The notes beneath the pieces are model-generated. The model saw nothing but the letters and a program-made list of their open reading frames with translations, made no database searches and was not told the origin of the DNA. Of a stretch of 64,000 bases of DNA, positions 39,525-55,133 are shown piece after piece; positions within the stretch are counted from its first letter, which is position 1, and every line of letters begins with the position of its first letter. The stretch covers positions 160,001-224,000 of the forward strand of contig JBHLNF010000001.1 of NCBI GenBank assembly GCA_048937405.1. Reading direction: 5' to 3'. The position numbers and the translations under genes are program-made. The DNA is from Promethearchaeota archaeon (GTDB lineage: Archaea; Asgardarchaeota; Lokiarchaeia; Sigyniarchaeales; SOKP01).

Positions 39525-39543
39525 TGAGTTTAGGTGAAATAAA

Positions 39544-39693
39544 ATACCACAAGGCAAACATTTCGGTAAAGGCCAGAGAGAATGTAGAAGATGTCATACT
39601 CATAGAGGAGTAATACGACGGTATGGATTATATATATGTAGAAGGTGCTTTTATGAAATAGGAAAAGATATTGGATTTAAAAGATTTGAGTAA
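39544..39693 (+). CDS. rps14: 30S ribosomal protein uS14 (Zn-binding type); not in ORF track, apparent ATA start
   Basis: (M)[48 protein letters not shown]; in-frame TGA at 39535 upstream with no ATG/GTG/TTG between; GGTGA 6 nt before ATA. Confidence 0.9.
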
Positions 39694-39713
39694 TAATTAG
39701 AATAAAAAAAAGT

Positions 39714-39869
39714 GTGAATATCTATGACAAATACCATAGCAGATGCTTGTTGTGCCCTTAAAAATGCAGAAAGAGCACGTAAAAAGGAAGTTATTATTAG
39801 CCCTGCTTCTAAGGTTCTTCAACAAATTCTTCGAATATTCCAAAGACAAGCATATATTGGAGAATTCGA
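39714..39869 (+). repeat. Left copy of a 156-bp imperfect direct repeat (uS8 RBS + first 49 codons); partner at 54740-54895
   Basis: Direct comparison gives 5 mismatches (tct/att in the spacer, ACA/CCA, CTT/CTC, GGA/GGC). Confidence 0.97.
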
Positions 39870-39885
39870 AGTCTGTTTATTATAA
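39724..39885 (+). pseudogene. rps8: Truncated 5' fragment of uS8 at the canonical position after uS14
   Basis: MTNTIADACCALKNAERARKKEVIISPASKVLQQILRIFQRQAYIGEFE then VCLL*; matches the intact copy except T2/P2. Confidence 0.93.
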
Positions 39886-40245
39886 ATATTTTAAAACTAA
39901 ATTTCTAAACTCCTGTACTTTTATAGGTTTTGATATATATTGATTAAAACCAGATGACATAATACGTTCCTTATCTCCTTTCATTGCAAAAGAAGTTACA
40001 GCAATTATTGGTATATCTTTGAATTTTTCGATTTTTCTTAAATTTGAACAAATTTCTGTACCGTTCATTTCTGGTAATTGAATGTCTAGAATAATTAAAT
40101 CTGGATTACCTGATTTGATTAATTCAAATCCTAAATCACCTCTAGTTTCTTCAAAAATTTCAATATCGGGTATTAAATTTAAAATTGCTTTAAATAGCTT
40201 CATATTTTTTTCATTATCCTCAATAACATACACACTTTTTTTCAT
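39880..40245 (-). CDS. Single-domain response regulator (CheY/DivK-like receiver)
   Basis: IEDNEKN, LIILDIQLPEMNG, AVTSFAM, YISKPI. Confidence 0.93.
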   Translation of the reverse strand: MKKSVYVIEDNEKNMKLFKAILNLIPDIEIFEETRGDLGFELIKSGNPDLIILDIQLPEMNGTEICSNLRKIEKFKDIPIIAVTSFAMKGDKERIMSSGFNQYISKPIKVQEFRNLVLKYL

Positions 40246-40401
40246 AAATCATTACCTACTTTTTTATTGAAACATAAAGAGAATTACGTGAATAATTCTT
40301 TTAAGGAAATTTTCACCTATGACTTCTAGATAAATCATTTTAGCTAAGATATATAAATTTTTAGAAATCTAAAATTGAAATAGAAGAATTGCAAATTGAT
40401 T

Positions 40402-41949
40402 TTAAGGACAAAATTTTAATTTTAGTTCTTGAGCTATATTAGCCATTTTATTTAGTTCTTCATAATCTTTTTCAATTATTGATTTCATGATATCAACCTT
40501 TAACTTTTTAATTTTTTCAAGAGTAATAGAAAATTCTTTATTAATATCCTCATATAATTTGTCTATGTTGCTATAAAGAAGTTGAGCTTGATTTTTATCA
40601 ATAATCTCAGAATTAATTATCTTTCTTTGATAAAAAGTATTTAATTCTTCTAACCAATTCCTTCCAATTTCTCCTATTGGTAGTAGATCATCGATTTTTC
40701 CTGTATTTAGCCCCATTTCAAATTTATCCTTATATTCATCGAATAAATTCCTGAAATAATTGTTAATTTTATTTTCAATGGCTTCTAAGTTAATATTAGG
40801 ATTCATAAAAAGAGTTACAGTATAATTATTATAACTAAAAATATGCATTTTTAAATTACTTCCTCTCAAACCAAAACCGGTTAAATCCTGAATATTTAGT
40901 TCCAAAGAAAATTTCTCCAACGCACTTATAAACATTGGAATCAATTCAAGATCAATTGGAATTATACTATCATCATTTGGAACACTTTGAGAAATATAAT
41001 CTTTAATAGCATTATCATATAATTCAAAATTTAATAACGATAATCCATCTTTATCTGATATTATTGCTCCTATGATCCCTGAATTTTTTTCTTCAGTCGG
41101 AATTTCTAATAAAGGAAAATTTCTCTCATCTTTATCATTTGAGACGGAGAAAAAATTCTCCAAAACTTTTTTGTATATTACCTTACCTTTATTCGTTAAA
41201 CTTAGAAGTGATTCATTTTTTACCTCTTTTACTTCAATATGACCTTTATTAATTAAATTTTCAACTAAATAATTTACCAATTTCTCAGGACGATTCAATT
41301 TTTCATAAAGAATATCTTTAGCAATAATTACATTTTTATCAATTTGATGTATGATTTTCAATGATTCATCAACCATATTCAATAATAATCCTTCATTAGG
41401 TAAGACATCTTGAAGGCAAGTTTTCATAATTTCAATGAAATATGAAAAAGTCTGATGAAAGTATTCCTTTTTCAAACTGGTAAATCGAAAATTTATTAGA
41501 GTATCATTTGAGAAACTATTCTTAATTATCGATCTAATTTCTCTGATTTTCTTTTCACTTACCAAATCTATTTTATGTAATAATACAAAAATAAAGGTGG
41601 ATGGAGTAAGATCATTTCTTAAATCAATAACTTTTCTTACAAAATTAATGATCTCATCATTATTAGATTTAATGTCAATTACTACCAATATTAGTTTAGT
41701 GTCATAAAAAATTCTTTTTTCATCTGTTTCAAGCCATCGTTTATTTTCTTGACCAGCTAGATCAAATATACCAATATCTTCATTTAAACCTGGTAATCGC
41801 AATATTAATGATTCTTCTCCATATGTTGGGTCTAAAGCATATTCTAGTAACTTAGATGAACTTTCTCCTTCAAAAAAGACTTTACGAAGGGTTGTTTTCC
41901 CAGCATTTGGTGGTCCTACAAATATAATTTTTTTTCCTATTTTGATCAC
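40402..41949 (-). CDS. Rag/Gtr1-like small GTPase fused to a winged helix and a longin/roadblock-like domain
   Basis: G1 GPPNAGKT, G2 PTYG, G3 DLAGQ, G4 HKID; wHTH-like LVENLINKGHIE..LSLTNKGK; GAIISDKDGLSL..LIPMFISALEKFSLE. Confidence 0.75.
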   Translation of the reverse strand: MIKIGKKIIFVGPPNAGKTTLRKVFFEGESSSKLLEYALDPTYGEESLILRLPGLNEDIGIFDLAGQENKRWLETDEKRIFYDTKLILVVIDIKSNNDEIINFVRKVIDLRNDLTPSTFIFVLLHKIDLVSEKKIREIRSIIKNSFSNDTLINFRFTSLKKEYFHQTFSYFIEIMKTCLQDVLPNEGLLLNMVDESLKIIHQIDKNVIIAKDILYEKLNRPEKLVNYLVENLINKGHIEVKEVKNESLLSLTNKGKVIYKKVLENFFSVSNDKDERNFPLLEIPTEEKNSGIIGAIISDKDGLSLLNFELYDNAIKDYISQSVPNDDSIIPIDLELIPMFISALEKFSLELNIQDLTGFGLRGSNLKMHIFSYNNYTVTLFMNPNINLEAIENKINNYFRNLFDEYKDKFEMGLNTGKIDDLLPIGEIGRNWLEELNTFYQRKIINSEIIDKNQAQLLYSNIDKLYEDINKEFSITLEKIKKLKVDIMKSIIEKDYEELNKMANIAQELKLKFCP

Positions 41950-43260
41950 TTAAATTTTTTTATTGAAGTAATATATATTTTTTAATTTTTGTTTGATTTG
42001 ACCAATTGTCCAAATTAATTTATTTGCACTAAGAGTTTCTGAAAAACAAACTAAATTTTTAAGATTAAATTTTTGATAATTCAAACTGTTCATAATAATA
42101 TTCAAATTAGAACTTGAGAGAATTAAATGTTCAATTCTATCATTTTTAGATACATTTTCGAAAGTTTTATTTAATTGGGTTATAAGTTTATGCGAATGAT
42201 TGATAATTATCGTGTTAAAATCTTTCGTAATAGATTGTGCTACTATACTATCATTTAAATTAGTAATAAAAAACATAGTTTTTGAAAAATTTGATATCAT
42301 ACTATCCAACAGGTTCTTTAAGTGAAAAGTATATTTTGAAAAATTGCTTAATAATTCATAAAATGCATTATAAAGGCTATAAATTAAATTTGGATAAATA
42401 CTTGTATAATAAATAGACACATCAAATTTCATTTTTAAAATGTTTGTAAGGTCTTTAAGATACTCTTTTCTAGATCCTTTCTCTATTAAATCAATTTTAT
42501 GGATGAAAAGAATTAGTTGAGCAGTATAGGAGTTATCTTGTAAAATTTCAATGACTTGTTTGATATCCTCCATGATTAATTGTTCATTTGTAATCCATGT
42601 TGGATAATCAAAGAGATATACTATAAAGTCAGTATTCTCAAATGCTAGAATTTGGTCATTATTTTTATTATTTTCCAGAAGTTGACTGAGTTCTTGTCCA
42701 GAAGAATCAAATAAACCTACCTTCAAATCTAACCATGAATAAACTGATGGCGATATTCCTCGAGTCGGTTCTAAAGGATTTGTTATTAAATTTATTGGAT
42801 CATATCCTTCAAAGACAATTTTCTTAATAGTTGTTTTTCCTGTACCTGGTCTACCAATTATCAATATCTTTTTAGCTGAAGACTTAATAAAAAAAGTATC
42901 AATTTTCTCTTGGAAATATTTTTTTTTATCATCTTCAGATTTTCCTAAGAATTTTCTGGCAAATTTAATAAATTCAGATTTTTGATTATATAAATTAATC
43001 TTTTCTTTTTCTTCCAGTATAATAAGAATTATTTCATATCCAATCTCAGAAACTTTTGATTTATCACAATAACTAAGTATAATATTATCTTTATATGTAA
43101 TTTCAATTAACTCACCCTTCTTAAAATCATCTTCATAGGAATGAGTCATATATATTTTATTGATTAATTCATCCGTTAGTTTTAATTCTAAAGGATATTT
43201 CAGCTCAAGCGTAGCACCCATTTTAGTATCCCAACTAAAAAACGCTAAACCTTTAACCAT
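41950..43260 (-). CDS. Rag/Gtr1-like small GTPase with N-terminal longin/uDENN-like and C-terminal roadblock-like domains
   Basis: N-terminal FFSWDTKMGATLELKYP; GRPGTGKT, LEPTRG, DSSGQ, FIHKID, YYTSIY; C-terminal MFFITNLNDSIVA. Confidence 0.75.
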   Translation of the reverse strand: MVKGLAFFSWDTKMGATLELKYPLELKLTDELINKIYMTHSYEDDFKKGELIEITYKDNIILSYCDKSKVSEIGYEIILIILEEKEKINLYNQKSEFIKFARKFLGKSEDDKKKYFQEKIDTFFIKSSAKKILIIGRPGTGKTTIKKIVFEGYDPINLITNPLEPTRGISPSVYSWLDLKVGLFDSSGQELSQLLENNKNNDQILAFENTDFIVYLFDYPTWITNEQLIMEDIKQVIEILQDNSYTAQLILFIHKIDLIEKGSRKEYLKDLTNILKMKFDVSIYYTSIYPNLIYSLYNAFYELLSNFSKYTFHLKNLLDSMISNFSKTMFFITNLNDSIVAQSITKDFNTIIINHSHKLITQLNKTFENVSKNDRIEHLILSSSNLNIIMNSLNYQKFNLKNLVCFSETLSANKLIWTIGQIKQKLKNIYYFNKKI

Positions 43261-43266
43261 TAAATC

Positions 43267-45411
43267 TCAACTCTCTATTTTTTCTTTTAATTTTTTAGTT
43301 ATAGTAAAAGTAAATGTTGATCCTGTACCTAATACGCTATTAAATGTTATACTTCCTCCATGTAATTCTACAAGCCTTTTGGTTAATGATAATCCAAGTC
43401 CGGTCCCAGGAACAGAGCGTACATATGTAGAATCTACTCTTTTAAATTCCTTGAAGATCAGAGAAAAATCTTTTTGATCTATTCCAATACCTGTATCATT
43501 TACTTTAAAAACCCATTGACCATATTTTTCTTGTATTTTTACTGTAATTTGACCTTCAAGAGTAAATTTAATAGCATTACTTAAGAGATTCAATAAAATT
43601 TCTTTGAATCGAATTGGATCTGCATAAATATATTTTTTTTCATCTAATCCTTTAATCTTTAATTTAAGGTTCTTTCTATTATACATAGGCTTTAAGCTTG
43701 ATTTAATTTGTTCAAATATGTTATTTAATGAAACCTTTTGAATATTCAAGTTTATTTGTCCAGATTCTATTTTTGATATATCTAAAATATGTTTAATCAT
43801 ATCAAATTGATGTTCTGCAGAATTTTTTATATCGGTAACAAATTCCTTTTGTTCATCATTTATTTGACCATAAACACCCTCTAATAATAAATCAGAAAAT
43901 CCAATAATAGCATTTAAAGGAGTCCTTAATTCATGTGACATTGTAGCCATGAATTCTGTTTTAAACTGAGAAGACTTTACTATTTGATCCATGTATAATT
44001 TCTGCTGTTCAAGGGTTTTATTTAACTCTTTAGTTCTATCCTGAACTTTTTGTTCTAATTCATCTTTAAATTTCTCTTCTAAAAGTTCTGAGGTCTTTTT
44101 TTCAGTAATATCTTTAAAAATCAGTTGAAATAGAGTTCCAGGCTTCTGTTTTATAATAGAAGCTTGAATTTCAACCCAAATACTTTCTCCATCCTGTTTT
44201 TTTAACTCAACCTCAACAGGTTTTGGAAAATTATTTTCAAAATTGGCATGAAAAATTTTCTTAAAATAAAGCTTAACTTCAAAAGGAAAGAAGTTGATAA
44301 GCTCATCTATTGATTTTTGAATAAAATAATCCCTTTCATAACCAAATATTTTGTCTGTAGTAAAATTAGCATCAACAACAATTCCATTAAAGTTTATTAT
44401 TAATATGGCATTTGGTGAGTTATCAAATAAATCTTTGTATCTTTTTTCAACAAAAATTTGATCAGTTATATCCCTCGAAATAACAAGAATTCTCACTTGC
44501 CCATCTTTATTTATAAAATTTTTAAAATTACATTCATGCCATAGCCAATGGCCCTCTTTATGTTTAATTCGCAATTTTATAGTACTTTTTTCACTTTTTA
44601 ATGGATCTTTTAATAATTTTGATATCTTTCCTTTATCTTTTGGATGAAGAAAATCCAGATATGATTTTTCCAATATCTCTTTCTTTTTGTATCCTAGCAG
44701 TTTAAATGCTATTTTTTCATTAAAATATTTAACTATTAATTTCAAACTAAGAATTATGATTAAATCATTTATATTTTCTTCAATGCGAATATGTTTCTCT
44801 TCTGATTCTTTCAACATTTTTTTTATTATATAATGTTCTATACCATTTCCAATAATTTGTGAAGATAATCGTAAAATTGATAACTGTGTCTCATTCGACT
44901 CTTTATGTATTGAATCATTTAAATATCCAATAAATCCTGCTAAGTCTTTTCTAATATATAGTGGAAACACCAATAGAGATCTGATATTATTAAGATTTAA
45001 TAACCTTTTTGTAGCTTTTGCTTCATCAGTTAAACTAGAAATATCATAAATATTGATAATTTTTCCTTTTCTAAGTTGATTATTCCACCATGGAAATTTT
45101 AAAAGCCATGAATTGTTAAAGTATTCAAATAACGGTTTAATTCCTTTTGCACACCATTCATACGTATTTTTTAAATTAATCTCATTAAAATTAATAATAT
45201 ATAAAACAACCCGACTCGCTTTGTTTAAAAACCCAATATCACGTAATGTAGCATTAATAATATCATTAATCTCGATATCTCCAAAGAATCGAGATGAAAT
45301 TGTTGAAATCAAAGTTTCTAAATCTGACCAAAATTGAACCAGACATTTTACATTTTGTTTTACATCATTTTTTTCTCCAAAAATATTTTCTTTGTTGTGA
45401 ATTCCACTCAT
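43267..45411 (-). CDS. Cytoplasmic sensor histidine kinase (GAF-PAS-PAS-HisKA-HATPase)
   Basis: NTYEWCAKGI GAF, FLHPKD PAS, MSHELRTPLNAIIGF, NLLSNAIKF, DTGIGI, GTGLGL. Confidence 0.93.
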   Translation of the reverse strand: MSGIHNKENIFGEKNDVKQNVKCLVQFWSDLETLISTISSRFFGDIEINDIINATLRDIGFLNKASRVVLYIINFNEINLKNTYEWCAKGIKPLFEYFNNSWLLKFPWWNNQLRKGKIINIYDISSLTDEAKATKRLLNLNNIRSLLVFPLYIRKDLAGFIGYLNDSIHKESNETQLSILRLSSQIIGNGIEHYIIKKMLKESEEKHIRIEENINDLIIILSLKLIVKYFNEKIAFKLLGYKKKEILEKSYLDFLHPKDKGKISKLLKDPLKSEKSTIKLRIKHKEGHWLWHECNFKNFINKDGQVRILVISRDITDQIFVEKRYKDLFDNSPNAILIINFNGIVVDANFTTDKIFGYERDYFIQKSIDELINFFPFEVKLYFKKIFHANFENNFPKPVEVELKKQDGESIWVEIQASIIKQKPGTLFQLIFKDITEKKTSELLEEKFKDELEQKVQDRTKELNKTLEQQKLYMDQIVKSSQFKTEFMATMSHELRTPLNAIIGFSDLLLEGVYGQINDEQKEFVTDIKNSAEHQFDMIKHILDISKIESGQINLNIQKVSLNNIFEQIKSSLKPMYNRKNLKLKIKGLDEKKYIYADPIRFKEILLNLLSNAIKFTLEGQITVKIQEKYGQWVFKVNDTGIGIDQKDFSLIFKEFKRVDSTYVRSVPGTGLGLSLTKRLVELHGGSITFNSVLGTGSTFTFTITKKLKEKIES

Positions 45412-45476
45412 AATTTAACTTTAATTTAATCTATCTTATACATTTTTGATACAAATAATATCTATTCAATAAAAGA

Positions 45477-46166
45477 TCATTCACAATGATCTTTGGGAAA
45501 TTGTTCTTCAAGAGCTTTCATAATATCGTTGCAAGAATCCAAGATCATGTTAATGTAATTCATAATCTCAGGTCTAGATATTTTTCTATTTATATTTTGA
45601 TCTATTATTAACTCACCAAATCCTCGAATTGTGTTAATTCCACTCCGAATCTGCATATTTATGGATTCTAAAGGTAGGATTTCATCTTTTTGCATATAAA
45701 TCTTATTTATTTCTTTAATAAAATTCTCAAATTCATTTTTATCATCAGACAAAATTTTATTACGTTTAATTTTATGAAAAATCATTCCAATTTTTTTGAA
45801 ATGAAGTATTGGTATTATAGAATAGCCAACATCCCGAAGTAGTATTATAGCATATAATTGTTTTCCTCCCCTTGCTGATAAATCCTCTATTTCGATCTTA
45901 TAGATTTGGGCATAAAAATTATTAAAATCTAATATAACAAATTGATTTTTAGTATTTAGCGCGTCTCTTAAAAGATTTTTTACAAATTCTTCATTTTTCA
46001 GAGGAATTTGAGAATATAGGGCTCTTGGACCTAATGTATGATCATATTTTCCAATAATCATAATAAAAGGATATTTTTCTAAATTATGCTTAAGAGTTGA
46101 ATAAATATCAAGATTTTCCTCTTCACGTTTATTTTTAAATTGGATATCTTTTATAATTTCTTTCAT
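45477..46166 (-). CDS. Folliculin/SMCR8-like longin domain fused to a degenerate, His-less HisKA-like domain
   Basis: YDHTLGPRALY and IEDLSARGGKQLYAIILL; C-terminal INMQIRSGINTIRGFGELI aligns with SHELRTPLNAIIGFSDLL of the neighbouring kinase. Confidence 0.62.
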   Translation of the reverse strand: MKEIIKDIQFKNKREEENLDIYSTLKHNLEKYPFIMIIGKYDHTLGPRALYSQIPLKNEEFVKNLLRDALNTKNQFVILDFNNFYAQIYKIEIEDLSARGGKQLYAIILLRDVGYSIIPILHFKKIGMIFHKIKRNKILSDDKNEFENFIKEINKIYMQKDEILPLESINMQIRSGINTIRGFGELIIDQNINRKISRPEIMNYINMILDSCNDIMKALEEQFPKDHCE

Positions 46167-46375
46167 TTTTTTTCCATGTAAATTAAATGATATATACTAA
46201 ATCTTAAGAATAAAAAAATCCTTATTGAAAGAAGTTTTTTATCCTTAGAATGATTTCTAAATTAATTGGAAAAGAATTGATATTTAATCTTTACTATTTA
46301 ATAAAGTGTATGAGTTATTAGGAAAAAAAAGAAATTTTTGTACAAATTTATATAATAGAAGCATATTAATAATTT

Positions 46376-47860
46376 ATGTCGGAATCCGCAAATACTATTA
46401 TAAAATATTTCTGCGATCGCTTTTTAGATATTGAATACTATCCTTCTAATTTGAAGGCAATTTTGGATTTTGATTTGCATAAAATAAAAAATATTAAAAA
46501 AGAAGATTTGCTGAAATTCCAGAAATTTAATATAAAAACCTTTCGAGATCTATGTAATTTAGATCAATCTGATTATGATCGGTTGATAAATCATTCATTT
46601 ATAGAAAAAAATCTACTAAATAATATTATTATTGCAGCAACTTTAATTGCTAATTCATGGAATAAAAGAAGTATTTACTTGAATAAACCAAAAATGAAAG
46701 TTGTTGTGGCTGGTCTTGATTTTGCAGGTAAAACATCTTTAATTAATAGATTGATTCACGATTATAACTACAATGATATGAATAATATTGAGCCAACAAT
46801 AGGGACAAATATAGAAGAATATCACTCAAAATGGCTGAATTTAATATTATGGGACTTAGGTGGCCAAAAGGATAATATAAATGAATATTTAGAATCTCCA
46901 GAAAAATTTTTTGTACAATTAGATGTTTTAATTTTTGTCATTGATGCCCAAGATGATAATAGATATAATGAAGCGGTTCGTTATTTGAATGATTTAATTG
47001 AAATATTTACATTTTTAAATGAAAATCCATATATCCTTGTATTGATAAATAAAGTAGATTCTGATATAGCAGAGGATCCAGATTTTCAAATTAAACTTGA
47101 ATATTTAATGGATAAAATAACTAATATCTTTATTAATAGTCAAAAATCATGGAATTTTGAGCTCATACCTACAAGTATCTATAATTTTTATTCTTCAGAA
47201 CCCGAGATTGCTAAAAGCATTAAAAAAATCTTTACAAAAGAAAAATCAGAAACACATTTGGATACTATAACGGAAATTAATGAGAAATTAGAAAGAATTT
47301 TAAATATAAACCTAGAATTAATGGATAAAATAGTATCTGATTTTTCCAAAATAAAACAAACCTTATTTAGATTTACACACTCTAATGTTTCTCAATCACT
47401 ATTTAACATTCCAATTCAGGATGTTCCCTGCAAGAATAGTTTTGATAAACAAAAAACAAATCAGAAAGATAGGACAAAGAAAAAAGAATCGAAAAAAAAA
47501 GAATTAAAAAAGAGAGAAAGAATAAAAAAAGTTATAGGTCCCCCGAAACGTTTAGAATCTATTATATCACCAAATGAAATTACACAAAATATAAAAAATA
47601 ATCATAAAATTACTGAAGAAAAATTGAAAGAAATAAAAAACGATTTAACCCCAACTCCTAAATCGTCTGATTTACGATCAACCCCACCAATAGCTCCTAA
47701 AAAAGGTTATTTAAGTAAAGCTGATCTTAAACCTCCACCCCCGCCACCAAAAATTGCAATTAAAAATGATACTTCATTACAAGGGAATAGAAAACAAATT
47801 ATTTCAGAATTAAAGGAATTATTTATAAGAAGAGGGTTAGTCCCTCATAAAAATATTTAA
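46376..47860 (+). CDS. Arf-like small GTPase with N-terminal helical domain and a long Lys/Pro-rich C-terminal tail
   Basis: VVAGLDFAGKTS, EPTIG, WDLGGQ, FVIDA, NKVD; PPPPPK near the C-terminus. Confidence 0.82.
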   Translation: MSESANTIIKYFCDRFLDIEYYPSNLKAILDFDLHKIKNIKKEDLLKFQKFNIKTFRDLCNLDQSDYDRLINHSFIEKNLLNNIIIAATLIANSWNKRSIYLNKPKMKVVVAGLDFAGKTSLINRLIHDYNYNDMNNIEPTIGTNIEEYHSKWLNLILWDLGGQKDNINEYLESPEKFFVQLDVLIFVIDAQDDNRYNEAVRYLNDLIEIFTFLNENPYILVLINKVDSDIAEDPDFQIKLEYLMDKITNIFINSQKSWNFELIPTSIYNFYSSEPEIAKSIKKIFTKEKSETHLDTITEINEKLERILNINLELMDKIVSDFSKIKQTLFRFTHSNVSQSLFNIPIQDVPCKNSFDKQKTNQKDRTKKKESKKKELKKRERIKKVIGPPKRLESIISPNEITQNIKNNHKITEEKLKEIKNDLTPTPKSSDLRSTPPIAPKKGYLSKADLKPPPPPPKIAIKNDTSLQGNRKQIISELKELFIRRGLVPHKNI

Positions 47861-48400
47861 TTATCGTTTAGAACAAATGAAAAATATTATAATTCGTATG
47901 AATTGTCTTTTTAATATTCAATTTTATCGGATTATAAAATTTATATTCCGCTCTTTTCCCTAACTTATTAGAATGTGATGTTCTCCATCATATTATTTTA
48001 TTTGTATTTATTTAAAGTGTGTTTTATATTCCAAGATAAAATTTTTTCTTAAGATCTATTTTAAACTTATATCTAAATCAGTTTGAATGAAATAAATCTT
48101 GAAATCATTAAATTAAGGACTTTAGCAAGATAAAAAGATAATTTAATTCAAACTTATCAAATCTTATAATAAAGTGAATTTTTTATCTTTTACTTCTTAT
48201 GATTTCTACTACTATTCACAAATATGGAAGCGAAATATAAAGAATTACTTTAATACCTGTAATAAATCAAGTTTCTAACTAGTAAATTCAACTTTTTTTA
48301 CTAGTAATTTGTGATTTTTTAATGGACTATGCATTTCGAAAAAATTAAAAATATGAAATTTATTGCTTTTATGGAGTAATTAATAGAACATTATTTTATT

Positions 48401-50746
48401 ATGCGGAAAAAAATTCAATCATTAGAAAAATTCAAAATAAAAAATAGACCTTTTAATCATAATATTTTAGAGGTTATAGTAGAAATAAATCTAGATGGAA
48501 AGTTTATTTGTTTTAGTCCACAGGTTTATGATCTTTTCGGTTTTCGACCAAAAAAGTTAATCAAGCTAAATGAACAAAATTTCATCCATCCAGAAGATTT
48601 ATCACTTTATAGAGAAGTAATTGATAAGGTAAAAAACTTTAAAGAAACATTTATTGTAGATTTAAGAGTGAAGCACAATAAGGGATATTATGTCCCAATT
48701 TCATTAAAGGTTAATTTAATCTTACCTAATAATACAAAAAAAATAATTGGTATAATAAGAGATATTTCAGATATCAAAATTTCCAAGTTAAAATTTAAAG
48801 AATCTAAAGAGAAATATCTAAACATTATCAATAATATGATGGAAGGATATTTTGAAATTGATCTTAAGGGAAATTTTTTATATGCTAATGTGTATTTCTG
48901 TAAAACATTAAATTATTCTAAGGAAGAATTAATAGGAAAAAATTATCATTTTATTTATGAAAAAAAGACATGCGAACGTTTATTTAATATATTCACCCAA
49001 ATATATAAGACAGGGATACCTCATCCTCCAGAAGAAGTAATTAAAGTGGTAACAAATAAGGGTAAACTATTATATGTTGAAGGATCTATTCATTTATTAT
49101 ATGATTCTGAAGGATATAAGGTTGGATTTTATGGCTTAGCTCATGATACAACAAAAGAGATAAAAAACAATCAAAAATTAAAAGAATTCGAATTGAAATA
49201 TAGCAATATTCTCGAAAATATGATGGAAGGGTATTATGAAACTGATCTTAGGGGAAATTTTATATATGTTAATGCTGAGTATTGCAAAATTTTGGGATAT
49301 TCAAAAAAAGAATTATTAGGAAAGGATTATAGAACCTTTTATAATGTAGAGGGATTGAGTAATTTACAGAGTATTTTTACCAAAATATATAAAACTGGGA
49401 TACCTCACGCTCCAACAGGATTAGTAAAATTGGTGACAAAGAAAGGTAAACTTATATATTTTGAAGGTCCTGTTGATTTAATATATAGTTCGAAAGGAAA
49501 AAAGATAGGATTTTATGGGCTTATTCGTGATATAACAAAAAGAAAAATTGCGGAACAAAAATTAAAAGAGTCCGAAGAGAAATATCGAAGCATACTCGAA
49601 AATATGATGGAAGGATATTATGAAGTGGATTTAGAAAACAATATCATTTTTTTTAATGATTCTTTTAATAAGATATTAGGACATCCAAAAGAGAAATTAT
49701 CAAATGAAAAATTTGATTGGTTTTTAAGTTCTCATAGTAAAAAGAGATTTTCCTTACTTTTTAATAATTTATTAGAGAATAAAATGTCATTTTTAATTTC
49801 CCAGTTTGAAATAATAAATCAAAAAGGAGAAATTATAAATGTCGAAACTTCAATATATCAAAAACAAGATATGAAAGGAAATATAATCGGATTCGGAGGA
49901 TTATTGCGGGACATTTCTGAAAGGATGCAAATCGAAGAAATGAGAGAAGAATTTACTGAAGAACTCCAAAATCAAGTAGTTCAAAGAACTCAGGAACTAA
50001 ATGAAGCATTAGAAAAGCAAGAATTATACATTCAAGAGATATTGAAGTCTTCTCGTTTTAAAAGCGAATTTATGTCTGTGATGTCCCATGAGCTGAGGAC
50101 ACCTATGAATGCCATCATAGGTTTTTCTGATCTTTTGATGGAGGGGGATTTTGGTCAACTTAATGAAAATCAAAAAGACTTCTTATATGATATAAAAGGG
50201 TCTGCTAACCACTTACTAAATATAATTAATCATATACTTGATATCTCGAAAATAGAGTCAGGTAATTTGAATTTGAAGATAAAAAAGATTCAACTGGATA
50301 TAGTTATAAAACAAGTCAAAGGAACACTTAAAACTTTATTTGATAATAAGAATTTAACATTTAAGGTGATTGGGTTGAAAAAGAATAAGGTTATCAATGT
50401 AGATCCTATAAGGTTTAAAGAGATTCTTTTCAACCTATTAAGCAACGCAATTAAATTCACCTTAAAAGGAATTATTACTTTGAAAATTTCTGAAGATGAG
50501 ATGCTATGGAAATTTGACGTGATTGATACAGGTATTGGTATAGCTAAGGAAAATTTAGGGTTTATTTTTATGGATTTTAGAAGAATTGATGATCCCCATG
50601 TAAATTCAACAGAAGGAACTGGACTTGGCCTTTCTGTTACAAAAAGACTAGTCGAGCTCCATGGTGGAAGTATCAGTTTTACAAGCGAATTTGGGAAAGG
50701 ATCTACATTTTCCTTTACAATTCCTAAAGATTTAAAAGAAGGGTAA
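48401..50746 (+). CDS. Cytoplasmic sensor histidine kinase (4x PAS-HisKA-HATPase)
   Basis: Repeated NMMEGY.E.DL PAS starts; MSHELRTPMNAIIGF, NLLSNAIKF, GTGLGL. Confidence 0.93.
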   Translation: MRKKIQSLEKFKIKNRPFNHNILEVIVEINLDGKFICFSPQVYDLFGFRPKKLIKLNEQNFIHPEDLSLYREVIDKVKNFKETFIVDLRVKHNKGYYVPISLKVNLILPNNTKKIIGIIRDISDIKISKLKFKESKEKYLNIINNMMEGYFEIDLKGNFLYANVYFCKTLNYSKEELIGKNYHFIYEKKTCERLFNIFTQIYKTGIPHPPEEVIKVVTNKGKLLYVEGSIHLLYDSEGYKVGFYGLAHDTTKEIKNNQKLKEFELKYSNILENMMEGYYETDLRGNFIYVNAEYCKILGYSKKELLGKDYRTFYNVEGLSNLQSIFTKIYKTGIPHAPTGLVKLVTKKGKLIYFEGPVDLIYSSKGKKIGFYGLIRDITKRKIAEQKLKESEEKYRSILENMMEGYYEVDLENNIIFFNDSFNKILGHPKEKLSNEKFDWFLSSHSKKRFSLLFNNLLENKMSFLISQFEIINQKGEIINVETSIYQKQDMKGNIIGFGGLLRDISERMQIEEMREEFTEELQNQVVQRTQELNEALEKQELYIQEILKSSRFKSEFMSVMSHELRTPMNAIIGFSDLLMEGDFGQLNENQKDFLYDIKGSANHLLNIINHILDISKIESGNLNLKIKKIQLDIVIKQVKGTLKTLFDNKNLTFKVIGLKKNKVINVDPIRFKEILFNLLSNAIKFTLKGIITLKISEDEMLWKFDVIDTGIGIAKENLGFIFMDFRRIDDPHVNSTEGTGLGLSVTKRLVELHGGSISFTSEFGKGSTFSFTIPKDLKEG

Positions 50747-50750
50747 AGAT

Positions 50751-51131
50751 TTGATAAAAAAAATATTTATCATTGATGATTATGAGAGAAATTTAAGGTT
50801 ATATAAAGCGACATTTAATGGTGCCCCTAATTTAGATATCATTACGGAGAGAGATGGGATAAAAGGTTTAGAGATGTTAAAAGAGAGTAATCCAGATCTG
50901 ATTATTTTAGACTATAAACTAACAAATATAACTGGTGTTGAGATATGCAAAGAGTTAAGAAAAATAGAAAAATTCAAAGATATTCCAATAATTATGGTTT
51001 CTTCAACCCCTATTGAAAAAGATGTTGATAGAGCAACCTATTTTAAGGAAGCTGGTTTTAATTTATATTTCTCAAAACCAATAAACATTAAAAAATTTAG
51101 AGAAATCATAAAAAATCTATTATTCAAATAA
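50751..51131 (+). CDS. Single-domain response regulator
   Basis: IIDD, PDLIILD, MVSS, FSKPI. Confidence 0.9.
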   Translation: MIKKIFIIDDYERNLRLYKATFNGAPNLDIITERDGIKGLEMLKESNPDLIILDYKLTNITGVEICKELRKIEKFKDIPIIMVSSTPIEKDVDRATYFKEAGFNLYFSKPINIKKFREIIKNLLFK

Positions 51132-51376
51132 TCATCTAATAAAACAATACTAGATTAAGTAGAACTATACTTTATAGATTTAAGTTTTTATTCCTTTGTT
51201 CTATAATTAGATTTTACTTTATAATTTTTTAAATATTTATTACCATATTATTTCTTTAAATAATTTAAAATTTCTGAGATTTGTAATTATTATGAAAGCT
51301 CTAATTAGATATGAATAATCTAACTGGTGGATTCTTTCTGTATCATTGTTTAATATTTCGAATTATGACATCTTCA

Positions 51377-52114
51377 TTAGGCAAGAATGTAAGGTTTTTC
51401 GTTTATCTCAGGAATCAAAATTATGAAATTACTACCCTTTTTATAATCCCCTTTCACTTTATCTTCCACCCAGATATAACCATTATATTTCTTTATTAAT
51501 TTTTTAACAAGAGTTAGTCCAAAACCCATTCCATTCAAACATTCTCGGATTTCATACTCTTTTTGAAAAATAGATTTTTTCCTTGCATTGGTAATACCAA
51601 CTCCGTTATCAATAAATTCGATTTTAACAAAAGAAGTATTATTCAGAATTATTTTTGAGACGTTAATTAATATTTGAATATTTGAGTTTTTATTGTGATA
51701 TATTGCATTAAATATAATATTCTCAAATACATTCTGCAATAATTTATCTCCTTGAACATATAATCCATTAAAATATGATTTTCGAATGCTTGAATAGTTG
51801 AAATTAATTTTTATATTATTTTCAGGAAATGATGATTCAATATATTCTATGGATGTCTTTAATAAATGGAGAACATCAATAGGTTGAAGAGAATTGTTAG
51901 AATCATCAAAATTAGTTACATTTTTCACATTTGAAATTATTTGAATTCCCCTCATCACCTGTTTATTTATAATATTCATACAAATTCTCATTTGTTCAGG
52001 TTTGGTTAAAGAAAAAGAGCAAAGTTGTAGAGAAGACTGAATAATATGAAGAATAGTCCCAAAATCATGAATTAAAATATCTCCATATGTATCAAATACA
52101 TTTTTTTTCTCTAT
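51377..52114 (-). CDS. Sensor-less histidine kinase (HisKA + HATPase); frame extends upstream of the ORF-track start to an apparent ATA start
   Basis: In-frame upstream of ATG 51991: IEKKNVFDTYGDILIHDFGTILHIIQSSLQL (H-box), bounded by TGA within GGTGA; NIIFNAIYH, DNGVGI, GMGFGL. Confidence 0.75.
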   Translation of the reverse strand: MEKKNVFDTYGDILIHDFGTILHIIQSSLQLCSFSLTKPEQMRICMNIINKQVMRGIQIISNVKNVTNFDDSNNSLQPIDVLHLLKTSIEYIESSFPENNIKINFNYSSIRKSYFNGLYVQGDKLLQNVFENIIFNAIYHNKNSNIQILINVSKIILNNTSFVKIEFIDNGVGITNARKKSIFQKEYEIRECLNGMGFGLTLVKKLIKKYNGYIWVEDKVKGDYKKGSNFIILIPEINEKPYILA

Positions 52115-52328
52115 TGTTTGTCACCAATTATGATGCTAATTATTTTTATTGAATTTTTTTTATCTTTCTTATAAAGATTTAATTGTATTTTATGGTAAAA
52201 TTTGGATTACAATACTATAAAGATTGACATTTCTATAAAAAAACTTATATTTAAATCTTTTTTTTCCAAAAAGGTGTATTACAATAAAGATCATTTAATT
52301 TTTGAAATGAGTTTTTCATCTGTAAATT

Positions 52329-52730
52329 TTAACTTATAATACTATTATTTATTTTAATGTCCTTCCTTTTTAATATTTTTAAAACAGTTTTAAATAATTT
52401 TTCTAAAGAAAATGGTTTATCTAAAAAATATTTTGCTCCTTTGGATAAAGCTTCAATCTTAATTTTATTATCTGCACTAGCAAATATTATTTTTGCTGTA
52501 TTTTCAATCTTTAAGATTTCTTCAAGGATTTGAATACCGTTTTTATTTGGCATTCGATAATCCAAAATTATAATATCAGGTTTTTTATATAAATTCTTGA
52601 ATAATGAAATGGCTTCTTCTCCATCACCTGTTAGACCTAATATCTTATAACCCTTACTTTCTAGAGCCATTTTGTAAAACCTTCTTAATTGGTTATCATC
52701 CTCTGCTATAAAGATTGATGACATATTCAT
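52329..52730 (-). CDS. Single-domain response regulator
   Basis: IAEDD, PDIIILDYRMPNKNG, FASA, LDKPF; overlaps the kinase stop (ATGA). Confidence 0.92.
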   Translation of the reverse strand: MNMSSIFIAEDDNQLRRFYKMALESKGYKILGLTGDGEEAISLFKNLYKKPDIIILDYRMPNKNGIQILEEILKIENTAKIIFASADNKIKIEALSKGAKYFLDKPFSLEKLFKTVLKILKRKDIKINNSIIS

Positions 52731-54007
52731 TGTACCTCCGGAAGTTTAAGAATAAATTTACTCCCTTTGGTATAATCCTCTGGAATCTTGTTTTCAACCC
52801 AAATTTTAGCATTAAATATATCTAAAATACTTTTGACAAGCGATAATCCTAATCCTAATCCACTAAGGCTTTTATTCATCCCAAAATCCCTAGTAAAAAG
52901 ACTTTGTTTCCTTGAATCGGGAATACCTACTCCATTGTCAATAAACTCGACCTTAAAAAATTTTTTTCCCTCTTCTTGAATGTGAGAGATCTTGATTAAT
53001 ATCTCAACAATTGAATTATCATTATGAATAACAGCATTAAGGAGAATATTTTCAAATATATCAAATATGAATTTATTTGCCACAATGAAAAAATTTTGTA
53101 GCTTGGTTTCAATTAGAATTTTCATTTCCCTTTTCTCTGTCCTTTTTTTGAGGTTATTAATTGCTTCTTCTAATATTTCTTTAAAATCTAGTTTTTCTAA
53201 AAATGTTTCAGATTCTAAAATTATGCTAAATTTTCTAACATTCCTAATTAAGTGTGTTCCCCTGTCAATTTGTTCTTTAATCAATTTTATTGATTCGTTT
53301 TCAGTTAAATCTCCAGTAATTTTTAAGTCTTGTTCAAATAATTCTAAACCCATTAATATGTTTTGAAGAATGTTATTAATATCATGAACGAAAAGATCCT
53401 TATAAAAACATTCTCTATTATACGCTTCTTGATATTTTTCAATAGATTTCTCGAAATTGGATACAGAAAACCATGTTATGAATGCAATAAGTACATAAAT
53501 GTTTAATCCAATAAAATTAGGAAAGAATCCATTGATAAAGCAAATAAGTAAATTGACAAAAATAATGAAAAATGTCATAATAAAACTCATATATGGGGTT
53601 ATTAAAAATCCAGCCATAATAATAGGTAACACAAGCTGAAGAAGAGATCTGCCTAAGACAAGTTCATAGGGAGTATCTGAGAGAAAAATAAGTATAGTTA
53701 CTAGTACTAGAAAAGTGCTAATGGCTAATTTATTAGACAAATAGTTATTTACCAAGAAAATAACAATACCTCCGAAAAAAGCAAATGTGGATAAACCTAA
53801 TATCAAAATTGTCTCTTTATTTCCTCCAATAGGAGATCCAATGATGAAGAAACTAAGATATATTAAAATAATCAAACCATCTGCAGATTCTATTCCAAGA
53901 AGTAAAATATTGAGAACTTTTTTTTTTCTCATTTCCTCTAGATCTTTTTTATGAATCAAAAAAAAATAATTTAGAATTCTCTTTATAAATGAACTCACCA
54001 TTTGCAC
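52727..54007 (-). CDS. Membrane-bound histidine kinase (~6 TM + HisKA + HATPase)
   Basis: TM bundle, LFVHDINNILQ, NILLNAVIH, DNGVGI, GLGLGL. Confidence 0.9.
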   Translation of the reverse strand: MQMVSSFIKRILNYFFLIHKKDLEEMRKKKVLNILLLGIESADGLIILIYLSFFIIGSPIGGNKETILILGLSTFAFFGGIVIFLVNNYLSNKLAISTFLVLVTILIFLSDTPYELVLGRSLLQLVLPIIMAGFLITPYMSFIMTFFIIFVNLLICFINGFFPNFIGLNIYVLIAFITWFSVSNFEKSIEKYQEAYNRECFYKDLFVHDINNILQNILMGLELFEQDLKITGDLTENESIKLIKEQIDRGTHLIRNVRKFSIILESETFLEKLDFKEILEEAINNLKKRTEKREMKILIETKLQNFFIVANKFIFDIFENILLNAVIHNDNSIVEILIKISHIQEEGKKFFKVEFIDNGVGIPDSRKQSLFTRDFGMNKSLSGLGLGLSLVKSILDIFNAKIWVENKIPEDYTKGSKFILKLPEVQ

Positions 54008-54739
54008 CCTTAACTAAAAAACAAGAATGATTATAGAATAATAGAATTAATATTTAAATTTAGCCATATTTGTCAGGAATAATTAGCAAACAAATAAATA
54101 CAACTCTTCTCAAATTTCAAGATTGTTATTAATTAACTTATTTCTTCCTATTTTTGTCTAAAAAATAATTTTAGATAATTTATAATAATATCTTCAGTTT
54201 TTAAGCTTTTTAAGAGTAAAGGAAGATTAAATAAGAATCTTGGATTAGTATCAATATATTAGACAAGTTAATAAACATTTTTGGTTATAATAAGAATAGA
54301 AGAGAAATTATATAAAATAAAATTTGAGTTAACATTGGATTTCGCCCTCTATTAACCTTAAAGTAGGTTATTCTCCTCCTCACATTTTAAACTCAAGTTT
54401 TTTCTTCCCTTCTCCTCAAGTTTTAAGATAAGGTTGTTAAGTAGAGATAAATCCTAATATGACTCTTTCAATGTTTAGATCCTTGTTTCTAGGTCAAGCG
54501 CAATCAAATTTTTATTACTGGAAAGAAAAAGCAAAAGAAGATAATTAATTTTTTCTAATTAAATAATTTTTAAGTTTTATGGTTTTATTTTAGATTTCAA
54601 TATCAATTAATAAAATTAAAATTTAATCCATTACTAATTAGAACAATACGGAGTAATGGATGGAAAAAACTAAAATAATAATTCTGGATATTGTTCCTGA
54701 TTTTATTAATTAAAATAAGATAAGAAATTTTAGGAAAGA

Positions 54740-54895
54740 GTGAATAATTATGCCAAATACCATAGCAGATGCTTGTTGTGCCCTCAAAAATGCAGAAAGA
54801 GCACGTAAAAAGGAAGTTATTATTAGCCCTGCTTCTAAGGTTCTTCAACAAATTCTTCGAATATTCCAAAGACAAGCATATATTGGCGAATTCGA
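54740..54895 (+). repeat. Right copy of the 156-bp rps8 5' repeat
   Basis: Matches 39714-39869 with 5 mismatches. Confidence 0.97.
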
Positions 54896-55133
54896 GAGGT
54901 ATGATGACGGAAGGCAAGGAAAATTTAAGATAGCATTATTAGGTAAAATTAATGAGTGTGCAGGATTAATGAGATTAAATTATAAATTATCTCAATTTGA
55001 GATGTTAGAAAGAAAATTATTACCAGCTCCAGGATTAGGCATTATAATTTTTACAACAAATCAAGGTATAATGACGATGAGTGAAGCAGAAGAAAATCAT
55101 ATTGGTGGGCATACTTTATGTTATATTTATTAA
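54750..55133 (+). CDS. rps8: 30S ribosomal protein uS8 (intact copy)
   Basis: YIGEFERYDDGRQGKF, LGKINEC, TTNQGIMT..A..IGG. Confidence 0.97.
   Translation: MPNTIADACCALKNAERARKKEVIISPASKVLQQILRIFQRQAYIGEFERYDDGRQGKFKIALLGKINECAGLMRLNYKLSQFEMLERKLLPAPGLGIIIFTTNQGIMTMSEAEENHIGGHTLCYIY

Follow-up and report, generated by a model that had tools for sequence, protein, structure and literature searches.

The window analyzed here, 64,000 nucleotides (nt) from the genome of a Promethearchaeota archaeon (positions 160,001 to 224,000 of contig JBHLNF010000001.1), is AT-rich (GC ~27%) and located on a 1.05-Mb contig of a genome that totals 4.47 Mb. Between positions 39880 and 54007 lies an island of 11 open reading frames (ORFs), and our Pfam and ORF survey of the window reveals that every one of them encodes a signaling protein, as had been claimed in an earlier reading of the bare DNA (hereafter the sequence-only reading). 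On the minus strand, LNG229, HK714, GTP436, GTP515 and REC1 follow one another with gaps of 65, 6, 0 and 156 bp, exactly the spacing given in that reading, and GTP494 is divergently oriented to LNG229, 209 bp apart (Table 1). HK781-REC2, separated by 4 bp, and HK426-REC3, which overlap by 4 nt, are classical kinase-receiver pairs, and all three receivers consist of a single domain with no output domain, again as first read. Scans with Rfam, PADLOC and NCBIfam and for tRNA genes returned nothing specific. We somewhat favor the view that the island carries a lineage-specific (Promethearchaeota/Lokiarchaeia) block that is inherited, lost and moved as one, and that combines a His-Asp phosphorelay with small-GTPase switches acting jointly. 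That the genes of the block form one functional module we consider probable, their functional coupling having good support.

Table 1. Features of the signaling island and its flanking repeats (positions in the window)
Feature	Coordinates	Strand	Evidence or remark
Left 161-nt direct repeat copy	39709..39869	+	15 nt leader + first 49 S8 codons; ends in truncated 53-aa ORF
REC1, DivK-like single-domain receiver, 121 aa	39880..40245	-	Pfam Response_reg 9e-24
GTP515, Rag-like GTPase	40402..41949	-	Gtr1_RagA 53 bits (cut-off 22)
GTP436, longin-like + Rag-like G + Roadblock	41950..43260	-	Gtr1_RagA 79.8 bits (cut-off 22)
HK714, soluble GAF-like/PAS/PAS/HisKA/HATPase_c kinase	43267..45411	-	Pfam + motif conservation
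LNG229, NPRL2/FLCN-type longin + His-less DHp hairpin (modeled)	45477..46166	-	Pfam Folliculin E 1.5e-3 + fold comparison
GTP494, Arf-like GTPase	46376..47860	+	Pfam Arf 84.7 bits (cut-off 22.3)
HK781, soluble 4xPAS histidine kinase	48401..50746	+	Pfam
REC2, single-domain receiver	50751..51131	+	Pfam; 4 bp after HK781
HA204, truncated kinase, accessory	51377..51991	-	DHp helix 2 + ATPase domain only
REC3, single-domain receiver, accessory	52329..52730	-	overlaps HK426 by 4 nt
HK426, membrane histidine kinase, accessory	52727..54007	-	hydrophobic N-terminal half
Right 161-nt direct repeat copy	54735..54895	+	forms 5' end of intact S8 gene (54750-55133)

Proteins encoded in the island

LNG229 had been read as a fusion of a longin domain with a pseudo-HisKA segment, and fold comparison agrees, pairing a longin of the GTPase-activating protein (GAP) type with a DHp hairpin devoid of its histidine. 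The AlphaFold2 (AF2) model of this 229-aa protein (predicted local distance difference test, pLDDT, 83) displays an N-terminal helix, a longin domain (residues 32-166) with a β-β-α-β-β-β-α topology and a two-helix hairpin (162-229). Residues 32-166 match NPRL2 of GATOR1 with a VIA Z of 13.1-13.7 and a root-mean-square deviation (rmsd) of 2.7 Å over 133 aa, and FLCN with a Z of 11.2-11.8, as compared with 11-12 for a Loki longin and 10.7 at most for generic longins (SNARE, adaptin); the Foldseek probability of the longin match is 1.0. As modeled, the longin fold is closest to the catalytic GAP subunits NPRL2 and FLCN. The relation is visible by fold comparison only, single-sequence and profile searches of LNG229 against solved structures having returned no FLCN or NPRL2 match. 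Across 45 LNG229 orthologues, Pfam recognizes Folliculin in 44 and HisKA in 20. Two conserved elements stand out in the longin domain: G46-P47, invariant across the orthologues, at the start of strand 2, and R99, at least 90% conserved, within an ARGxKQxY motif in the β4-β5 loop. Both a GP motif and an arginine finger are described in GAP longins, and in some longins of Asgard archaea (PMC12290439).

The hairpin, for its part, superposes on the DHp of HK853 with a Z of 8.6 and an rmsd of 2.2 Å over 66 aa, and hhalign aligns it to residues 473-533 of HK714 (E 1.1e-3), with Met171 opposite His493. By this comparison of models, the C terminus of LNG229 is a kinase DHp hairpin. It has no phospho-acceptor, the His position being occupied by Met171 here and by Leu or Val in the orthologues, and no ATPase (CA) domain follows; the residues that flank the H-box, R174, T179, I180, G182 and F183, are invariant among the orthologues. 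In a BLAST comparison of LNG229 with HK714, the best high-scoring pair matched the N-terminal helix to the H-box (E 7e-4), which we rejected as compositional because its histidine (H27) is not conserved. The LNG229 family is very small, a profile search of 1.84 billion representative proteins returning 39 matches at E <= 1e-3; the same approach picked up rare relatives with a PAS domain in front (PAS-longin-DHp), and a single-sequence search found no longer fused relatives. Variants of this putative coupler (P0012, P0014, P0021 and L024:1902-2528) comprise PAS-longin-DHp proteins and a 556-aa protein with six HisKA-like repeats. The distant paralogue at L024:1902-2528 keeps the H-box His and lacks Arg99.

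The Pfam matches listed in Table 1 bear out the two Rag-like GTPases and the one Arf-like GTPase of the sequence-only reading. In its AF2 model (pLDDT 80.6), GTP436 consists of a longin-like domain (residues 2-105), a Rag-like G domain (129-305) and a Roadblock domain (309-431) with an α-β-β-α-β-β-β-α topology, and the top Foldseek matches are full-length RagA/RagC and Gtr1/Gtr2 (E 7.5e-18 to 1e-15, template-modeling (TM) score ~0.6). With its G domain and C-terminal Roadblock domain, GTP436 is a member of the Rag/Gtr family. GTP515 displays a G domain (7-166), in which the G1, DxxGQ and HKxD motifs are invariant in 18 orthologues, followed by a weak winged helix (~217-259), a Roadblock-like region (~287-417) and a C-terminal coiled coil. 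The winged helix, which the sequence-only reading had placed in this protein, does recur as a Pfam match (DUF6293_C in 8 of the 18 orthologues), but all of these matches are weak, the best having an E of 4e-4. In an Atlas model of low confidence (pLDDT 0.68), the stretch 287-417 can be aligned with clusters of LAMTOR3 and Robl_LC7 (TM score 0.68), and Pfam Robl_LC7 is not matched in GTP515; the region is a candidate Roadblock domain on this model. The P-loop, DxxGQ and HKxD are retained in both Rag-like proteins, and their genes abut here (0 bp) and abut or overlap in relatives; the two would probably form a Roadblock-mediated heterodimer. GTP494 is a member of the Arf family by its G domain, where GLDxAGKT, WDxGGQ and NKxD show no variation across 19 sequences. 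N-terminal to the G domain lies a conserved domain of ~100 aa with a weak Pfam match (DUF4332, E 0.005), and the protein also has a coiled coil. The C terminus of GTP494 (47600-47860) runs from a Lys-rich stretch through PPPPPP to a conserved helix, R..IISELKE.F.KRGL; orthologues as distant as that of MK-D1 (see below) retain both the polyproline and the helix, whereas the linker is not conserved. A link of the tail to actin or profilin is conceivable.

Four histidine kinases had been counted from the DNA. Three are complete (HK714, HK781 and HK426), and the fourth, HA204, is a fragment only, since it is confined to the CA domain and has no H-box. HK714 is built of two PAS domains, HisKA, with the H-box His493, and HATPase_c, and its N-terminal GAF domain is weak (E 0.012) and clear in the orthologue from Promethearchaeum syntrophicum MK-D1 (GAF_2 4.9e-18). 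His493 and the residues of the N, G1 and G2 boxes, including the glycines of the ATP lid, are invariant in 13 orthologues. In REC1, the acceptor Asp54 together with Asp10, Thr84 and Lys106 is intact and conserved. Judged by such residues (H-box and N/G boxes in one, receiver pocket in the other), HK714 and REC1 are a two-component kinase and receiver. The best solved relative of REC1 is DivK (1m5t, E 8.4e-26), and its orthologues, 56-83% identical, make it the most conserved component of the block; REC2 is 48% identical to REC1. An HK781-type kinase (37-48% identical) stands beside HK714 in ~15 related loci. HK781 itself contains, at 48790-49714, three tandem 384-nt units with 67-76% DNA identity, each of one PAS domain, a pattern that indicates a fairly recent internal duplication. 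HA204 is a paralogue of residues 239-426 of HK426 (35% identity) without H-box or membrane part, and could be either a decaying HK426 duplicate or a free CA domain.

Recurrence and movement of the block

Among the outcomes that the sequence-only reading had named as together fatal to it was that the GTPases and kinases are never syntenic in related genomes. Our gene-neighborhood search found the kinases, the GTPases and the longin-DHp gene syntenic in many of them, spanning at least three families of the order. We found 48 such loci, 47 of which have an LNG229 orthologue; all are labeled Promethearchaeota/Promethearchaeia except three (two Odinarchaeota, one Bathyarchaeota), which look like mislabeled bins, and they include one in the closed genome of the cultured MK-D1 (NZ_CP042905.2, 2079002-2099604). 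Twenty loci have flanks of at least 2 kb upstream and at least 9 kb downstream; of these, a kinase is present in 19, a GTP494-like gene in 18, a GTP436-like gene in 15, a REC1 orthologue in 13 and a GTP515-like gene in 11. Where at least 2 kb of upstream sequence is available (39 loci), the GTP494 orthologue adjoins the LNG229 orthologue in 31. Other families of the order (the Promethearchaeum family) have the same gene families in rearranged order, at 25-60% identity. Judged across genomes, the core (REC1, the two Rag-like GTPases, HK714, LNG229 and GTP494) is clearly not a chance neighborhood. The conserved part is limited to the left ~8 kb (39880-47860) and an HK781-type second kinase; HA204 and REC3-HK426 are accessory. 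When 20 of the intergenic regions between divergent LNG229 and GTP494 genes were searched for motifs, AT-rich TATA-like words only and no operator candidate came up.

Within the genus, full-length orthologues of LNG229, GTP436 and GTP515 occur in the same six of 36 congeneric genomes (G003, G005, G008, G012, G026 and G033), related genomes that are not independent of one another, and the other 30 have none of the three, save for a broken LNG229 fragment in G024 (56% identity, one TAG stop). The nearest relatives by ribosomal-protein DNA (91%, 88% and 86% identity) do not have the block. Since it is absent from the closest relatives and present in more distant ones, gain or loss affects the block as a whole.

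In this genome, the ~15-kb block interrupts a ribosomal-protein cluster, with S17-L14-L24-S4e-L5-S14 on its left and S8-L6-L32e-L19e on its right, an order that is uninterrupted from S4e to L6 (S4e-L5-S14-S8-L6) in 11 of the 11 same-genus relatives looked at for this locus. The direct repeats at its two ends are 96% identical (6 of 161 positions differ) and carry the 5' end of S8; the left copy is slightly nearer to relatives than the right (93.7% vs 92.5% to the nearest one). S8 and the ribosomal-protein genes downstream of it are now separated by 15 kb from the upstream operon. In G012 and at locus L053, the block sits between a 515-aa gene and a 352/390-aa gene, and these same genes lie 114 bp apart on contig C17 of the present genome (176358-179066), which is an empty site. 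Because the usual site is empty and the block is inserted between S14 and S8, it has moved, or was re-acquired, as a whole in this genome. The 161-nt repeats are present and a recombinase is absent (no integrase, transposase or recombinase domain in the 11 ORFs of the island by Pfam, PADLOC and NCBIfam scans), so that the block is not an integrative mobile element as defined by repeats plus recombinase. In many relatives, two paralogous 560-620-aa proteins and the 515-aa protein precede the block (L043:638-5656, L035:1386-8249 and other loci). These match no Pfam family, have counterparts in this genome (C17:177519-186487) and may be further conserved members of the neighborhood.

Proposed coupling and its alternatives

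How the parts would work together can be put as follows, where the direction, with the kinase controlling the GTPase, and all protein contacts are what we infer. HK714, a soluble GAF-PAS kinase, would sense an intracellular cue, as the PAS-rich HK781 probably would too, and the kinase would phosphorylate the DivK-like receiver REC1. REC1~P would dock on the His-less DHp dimer of LNG229, in the way DivK~P docks on the pseudokinase DivL, and this docking would decide whether the two LNG229 longin domains, with GP46-47 and Arg99, work as a GAP. The targets of that GAP would be the Rag-like pair GTP436/GTP515, a probable Roadblock heterodimer, and/or the Arf-like GTP494, and output would pass via the accessory domains of the GTPases, that is, the winged helix of GTP515 and the polyproline tail with helix motif of GTP494. 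We are evenly balanced as to whether LNG229 is the physical coupler, and the exact order of the steps we hold to be doubtful. A complex prediction for two LNG229 chains and REC1 lends weak support to a contact between them: it passes with a score of 0.35 (runs 0.56, 0.04 and 0.35), the best control scoring 0.00, contacts are reproduced between runs to at least 83%, and the partner has a pLDDT of 80 or more. Of 80 solved complexes, 58 attain the pass mark, as do 2 of 110 mismatched pairs; passes with scores <=0.60 include only 7 of the 80 solved complexes, but both of the mismatches.

Several observations weigh against such a coupling, beginning with the prediction just described, which is weak, with one of three runs at 0.04, and which may reflect likeness to known complexes only, since DHp-receiver complexes are already solved in the PDB. 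Arg99 is Arg-finger-like by motif and location, its equivalence to FLCN R164 or NPRL2 R78 being putative, and its segment is reminiscent of FLCN around R164. For the hairpin, hhalign gives a probability of 21%, a moderate degree of homology to DHp. LNG229 also has neither the DENN/NPRL2-type C-terminal domain nor the second longin partner of eukaryotic GAPs; there is no partner longin gene in the island, where the N-terminal domain of GTP436 is longin-like. The copy of the block in this genome is, moreover, unusually placed and a reduced version, without two proteins found in relatives. The first is a 293-aa Rag-like GTPase encoded directly after LNG229 in 26 of 47 loci (L014:8825-9706), which is the most obvious candidate for the substrate; the other, common in relatives, is a 287-aa DHp-REC protein with a DHp-like segment and a receiver (L014:12365-13228), and no remnants of either gene are found in the gaps of the island. 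Lastly, the genome has 55 small-GTPase and 37 HATPase_c matches, and seven of the GTPases lie <=5 kb from a kinase vs 3.6 expected (p = 0.06, permutation), which becomes four vs 3.3 expected (p = 0.42) when this island is left out. Within this single genome GTPases are not significantly enriched near kinases, and paralogue-rich neighborhoods arise easily since both families are large.

The synteny, co-occurrence and fusion evidence would also fit if the GTPase/longin part were the input and the phosphorelay the output. The nucleotide state of the GTPases would then tune a kinase, with the His-less DHp of LNG229 heterodimerizing with HK714 or HK781 or sequestering REC1, and REC1 would carry the signal elsewhere, much as in the actinobacterial conservons described below, where interactions depend on both kinase and GTPase activities (PMC4316618; PMC13343842). 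The DHp is after all a kinase dimerization module, and the H-box region of LNG229 is close to that of the neighboring kinases. However, a GAP-type longin in which the GP motif and Arg99 are conserved suggests action on a GTPase rather than reception, and REC1 is DivK-like, a class known for signaling by docking on DHp (PMC4211667); we consider the reversed direction unlikely. We would likewise be surprised if these were co-inherited but independent signaling genes, kept together by shared regulation or by a mobile island, with the DHp of LNG229 a mere dimerization handle for the GAP and the kinases and receivers serving other pathways. The lack of enrichment within the genome, the mobility of the block, the differences between loci in kinase number and type and the lack of conservation of HA204 and REC3-HK426 would all agree with this. 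What speaks for joint function instead is that six or more gene families stay together over three families of the order, although rearranged and only 25-60% identical, that co-occurrence within the genus is perfect, that REC1 is more conserved than the other members, and that a mere dimerization handle need not keep the residues flanking the H-box of LNG229 invariant.

An assembly artifact or chance juxtaposition in this metagenome-assembled genome is highly improbable. The estimated contamination of the genome is 5.7%, and none of the public contigs covers S14, the repeat and the island in one piece: some extend from within the left repeat to the island, others connect the island with the right repeat, leaving the island-repeat junctions supported only in part. 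Yet dozens of independent assemblies, the closed MK-D1 genome among them, show the same order of the core genes, the contigs that connect the island with the right repeat come from an independent study, and the differences between the two repeat copies also argue against an artifact.

Relation to described systems

Our literature search found no published description of this gene block. The claim of the sequence-only reading that no system of this composition has been described is nevertheless overstated, being preceded by the fusions of Liu et al. (10.1101/2020.10.19.343400), the conservons and the Frz/RomR-MglA/MglB system. Liu et al. (bioRxiv 10.1101/2020.10.19.343400; Nature 2021) report many fusions of NPRL2-like longins with two-component domains in Asgard archaea, and propose an Asgard growth regulation centered on two-component systems with eukaryote-like regulators. 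The likeness lies in a GAP-type longin joined to two-component parts in these archaea; theirs are domain fusions, whereas ours is a conserved multi-gene block, and their paper states that most Asgard eukaryotic-signature genes have no conserved neighborhoods. Its text passages, as checked here, do not report a His-less DHp, a DivK-like receiver, a Rag-like pair and an Arf-like partner as a unit.

With the eukaryotic Rag/Gtr system and its regulators FLCN-FNIP and GATOR1 (NPRL2-NPRL3), the block shares the Rag-type G and Roadblock domains of GTP436, two paired Rag-like genes, and a longin whose best match is FLCN/NPRL2 with the GP and ARG motifs kept. In contrast to that system, there is here no TOR, Ragulator or DENN domain, upstream signaling is of the His-Asp type, the archaeal GTPases have extra longin and winged-helix domains, and the GAP-like longin is placed on a kinase hairpin. 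The actinobacterial conservons (AGPS), with the CvnA kinase, the CvnB Roadblock protein, CvnC and the CvnD GTPase (PMC4316618, PMC13343842), are likewise operons of a sensor kinase, a Ras-superfamily GTPase and a regulator of the Roadblock/longin superfamily. They are bacterial rather than archaeal, their GTPase is MglA-like and their kinase is a membrane HAMP protein with an LPxR tail, they contain DUF742, and they have no receiver and no longin-DHp fusion; by Pfam, our block is not a conservon, as it comprises soluble PAS kinases and Rag/Arf-type GTPases, with no stand-alone Roadblock protein and no DUF742. In the Frz/RomR-MglA/MglB system of Myxococcus xanthus (PMC3441718), a kinase phosphorylates output-less receivers that act by contact on a small GTPase and a Roadblock-fold GAP; there, however, the kinase is of the CheA type, the genes are dispersed and no GAP-DHp fusion is present. 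Caulobacter offers a DivK-type receiver that docks on a non-phosphorylatable DHp (DivK~P/DivL, PMC4211667), but DivL keeps its CA domain and regulates CckA, whereas the hairpin here is attached to a GAP-type longin. Finally, Tran et al. 2024 (PMC10933270) predicted that an adjacent, operonic pair of Rag-like GTPases in MK-D1 heterodimerizes via Roadblock domains. That pair, like ours, consists of adjacent Rag-like genes in a Lokiarchaeon, with a Gtr1/Gtr2-like dimer model, and may be the MK-D1 version of ours.

The same study noted that operons joining GTPase genes to longin or Roadblock genes are generally not found, and because of this rarity the GTPases could not be matched to regulators. 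A 2025 paper in Traffic (PMC12290439) poses the question of whether the Asgard longins with a GP motif and Arg finger have Rag/Gtr or Arf-related GTPases as partners. In dozens of species, MK-D1 among them, the block puts such a longin beside a kinase, a receiver and particular GTPases of the Rag-like and Arf-like types, and in this way names testable partners for orphan Asgard GTPases, a short list for phosphotransfer, GAP and binding assays. While the general idea of a link between Asgard longins and two-component systems is already in print, the coupling that we propose would, if true, be a concrete way in which eukaryote-type GTPase regulators plugged into prokaryotic phosphorelays. A bolder possibility, which we rate as quite unlikely, is that the block does in archaea what the Rag-FLCN/GATOR1 nutrient switch does in eukaryotes, where a His-Asp phosphorelay would stand in the place of TOR signaling, a DivK-like receiver would gate an arginine-finger longin GAP on a Rag-like heterodimer, and the Arf-like GTPase, by its polyproline tail and C-terminal helix motif, would relay the state to the cytoskeleton or membrane. 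Were it true, it would provide a model, testable in MK-D1, of the first wiring of eukaryote-type GTPase regulation into prokaryotic signaling.

A minor observation concerns the S14 gene (39533-39693), which has no ATG, GTG or TTG start and instead shows an in-frame ATA 6 nt after GGTGA. Five congeneric genomes share this layout; in one of them (G064) the codon is ATC by our reading of the frame.

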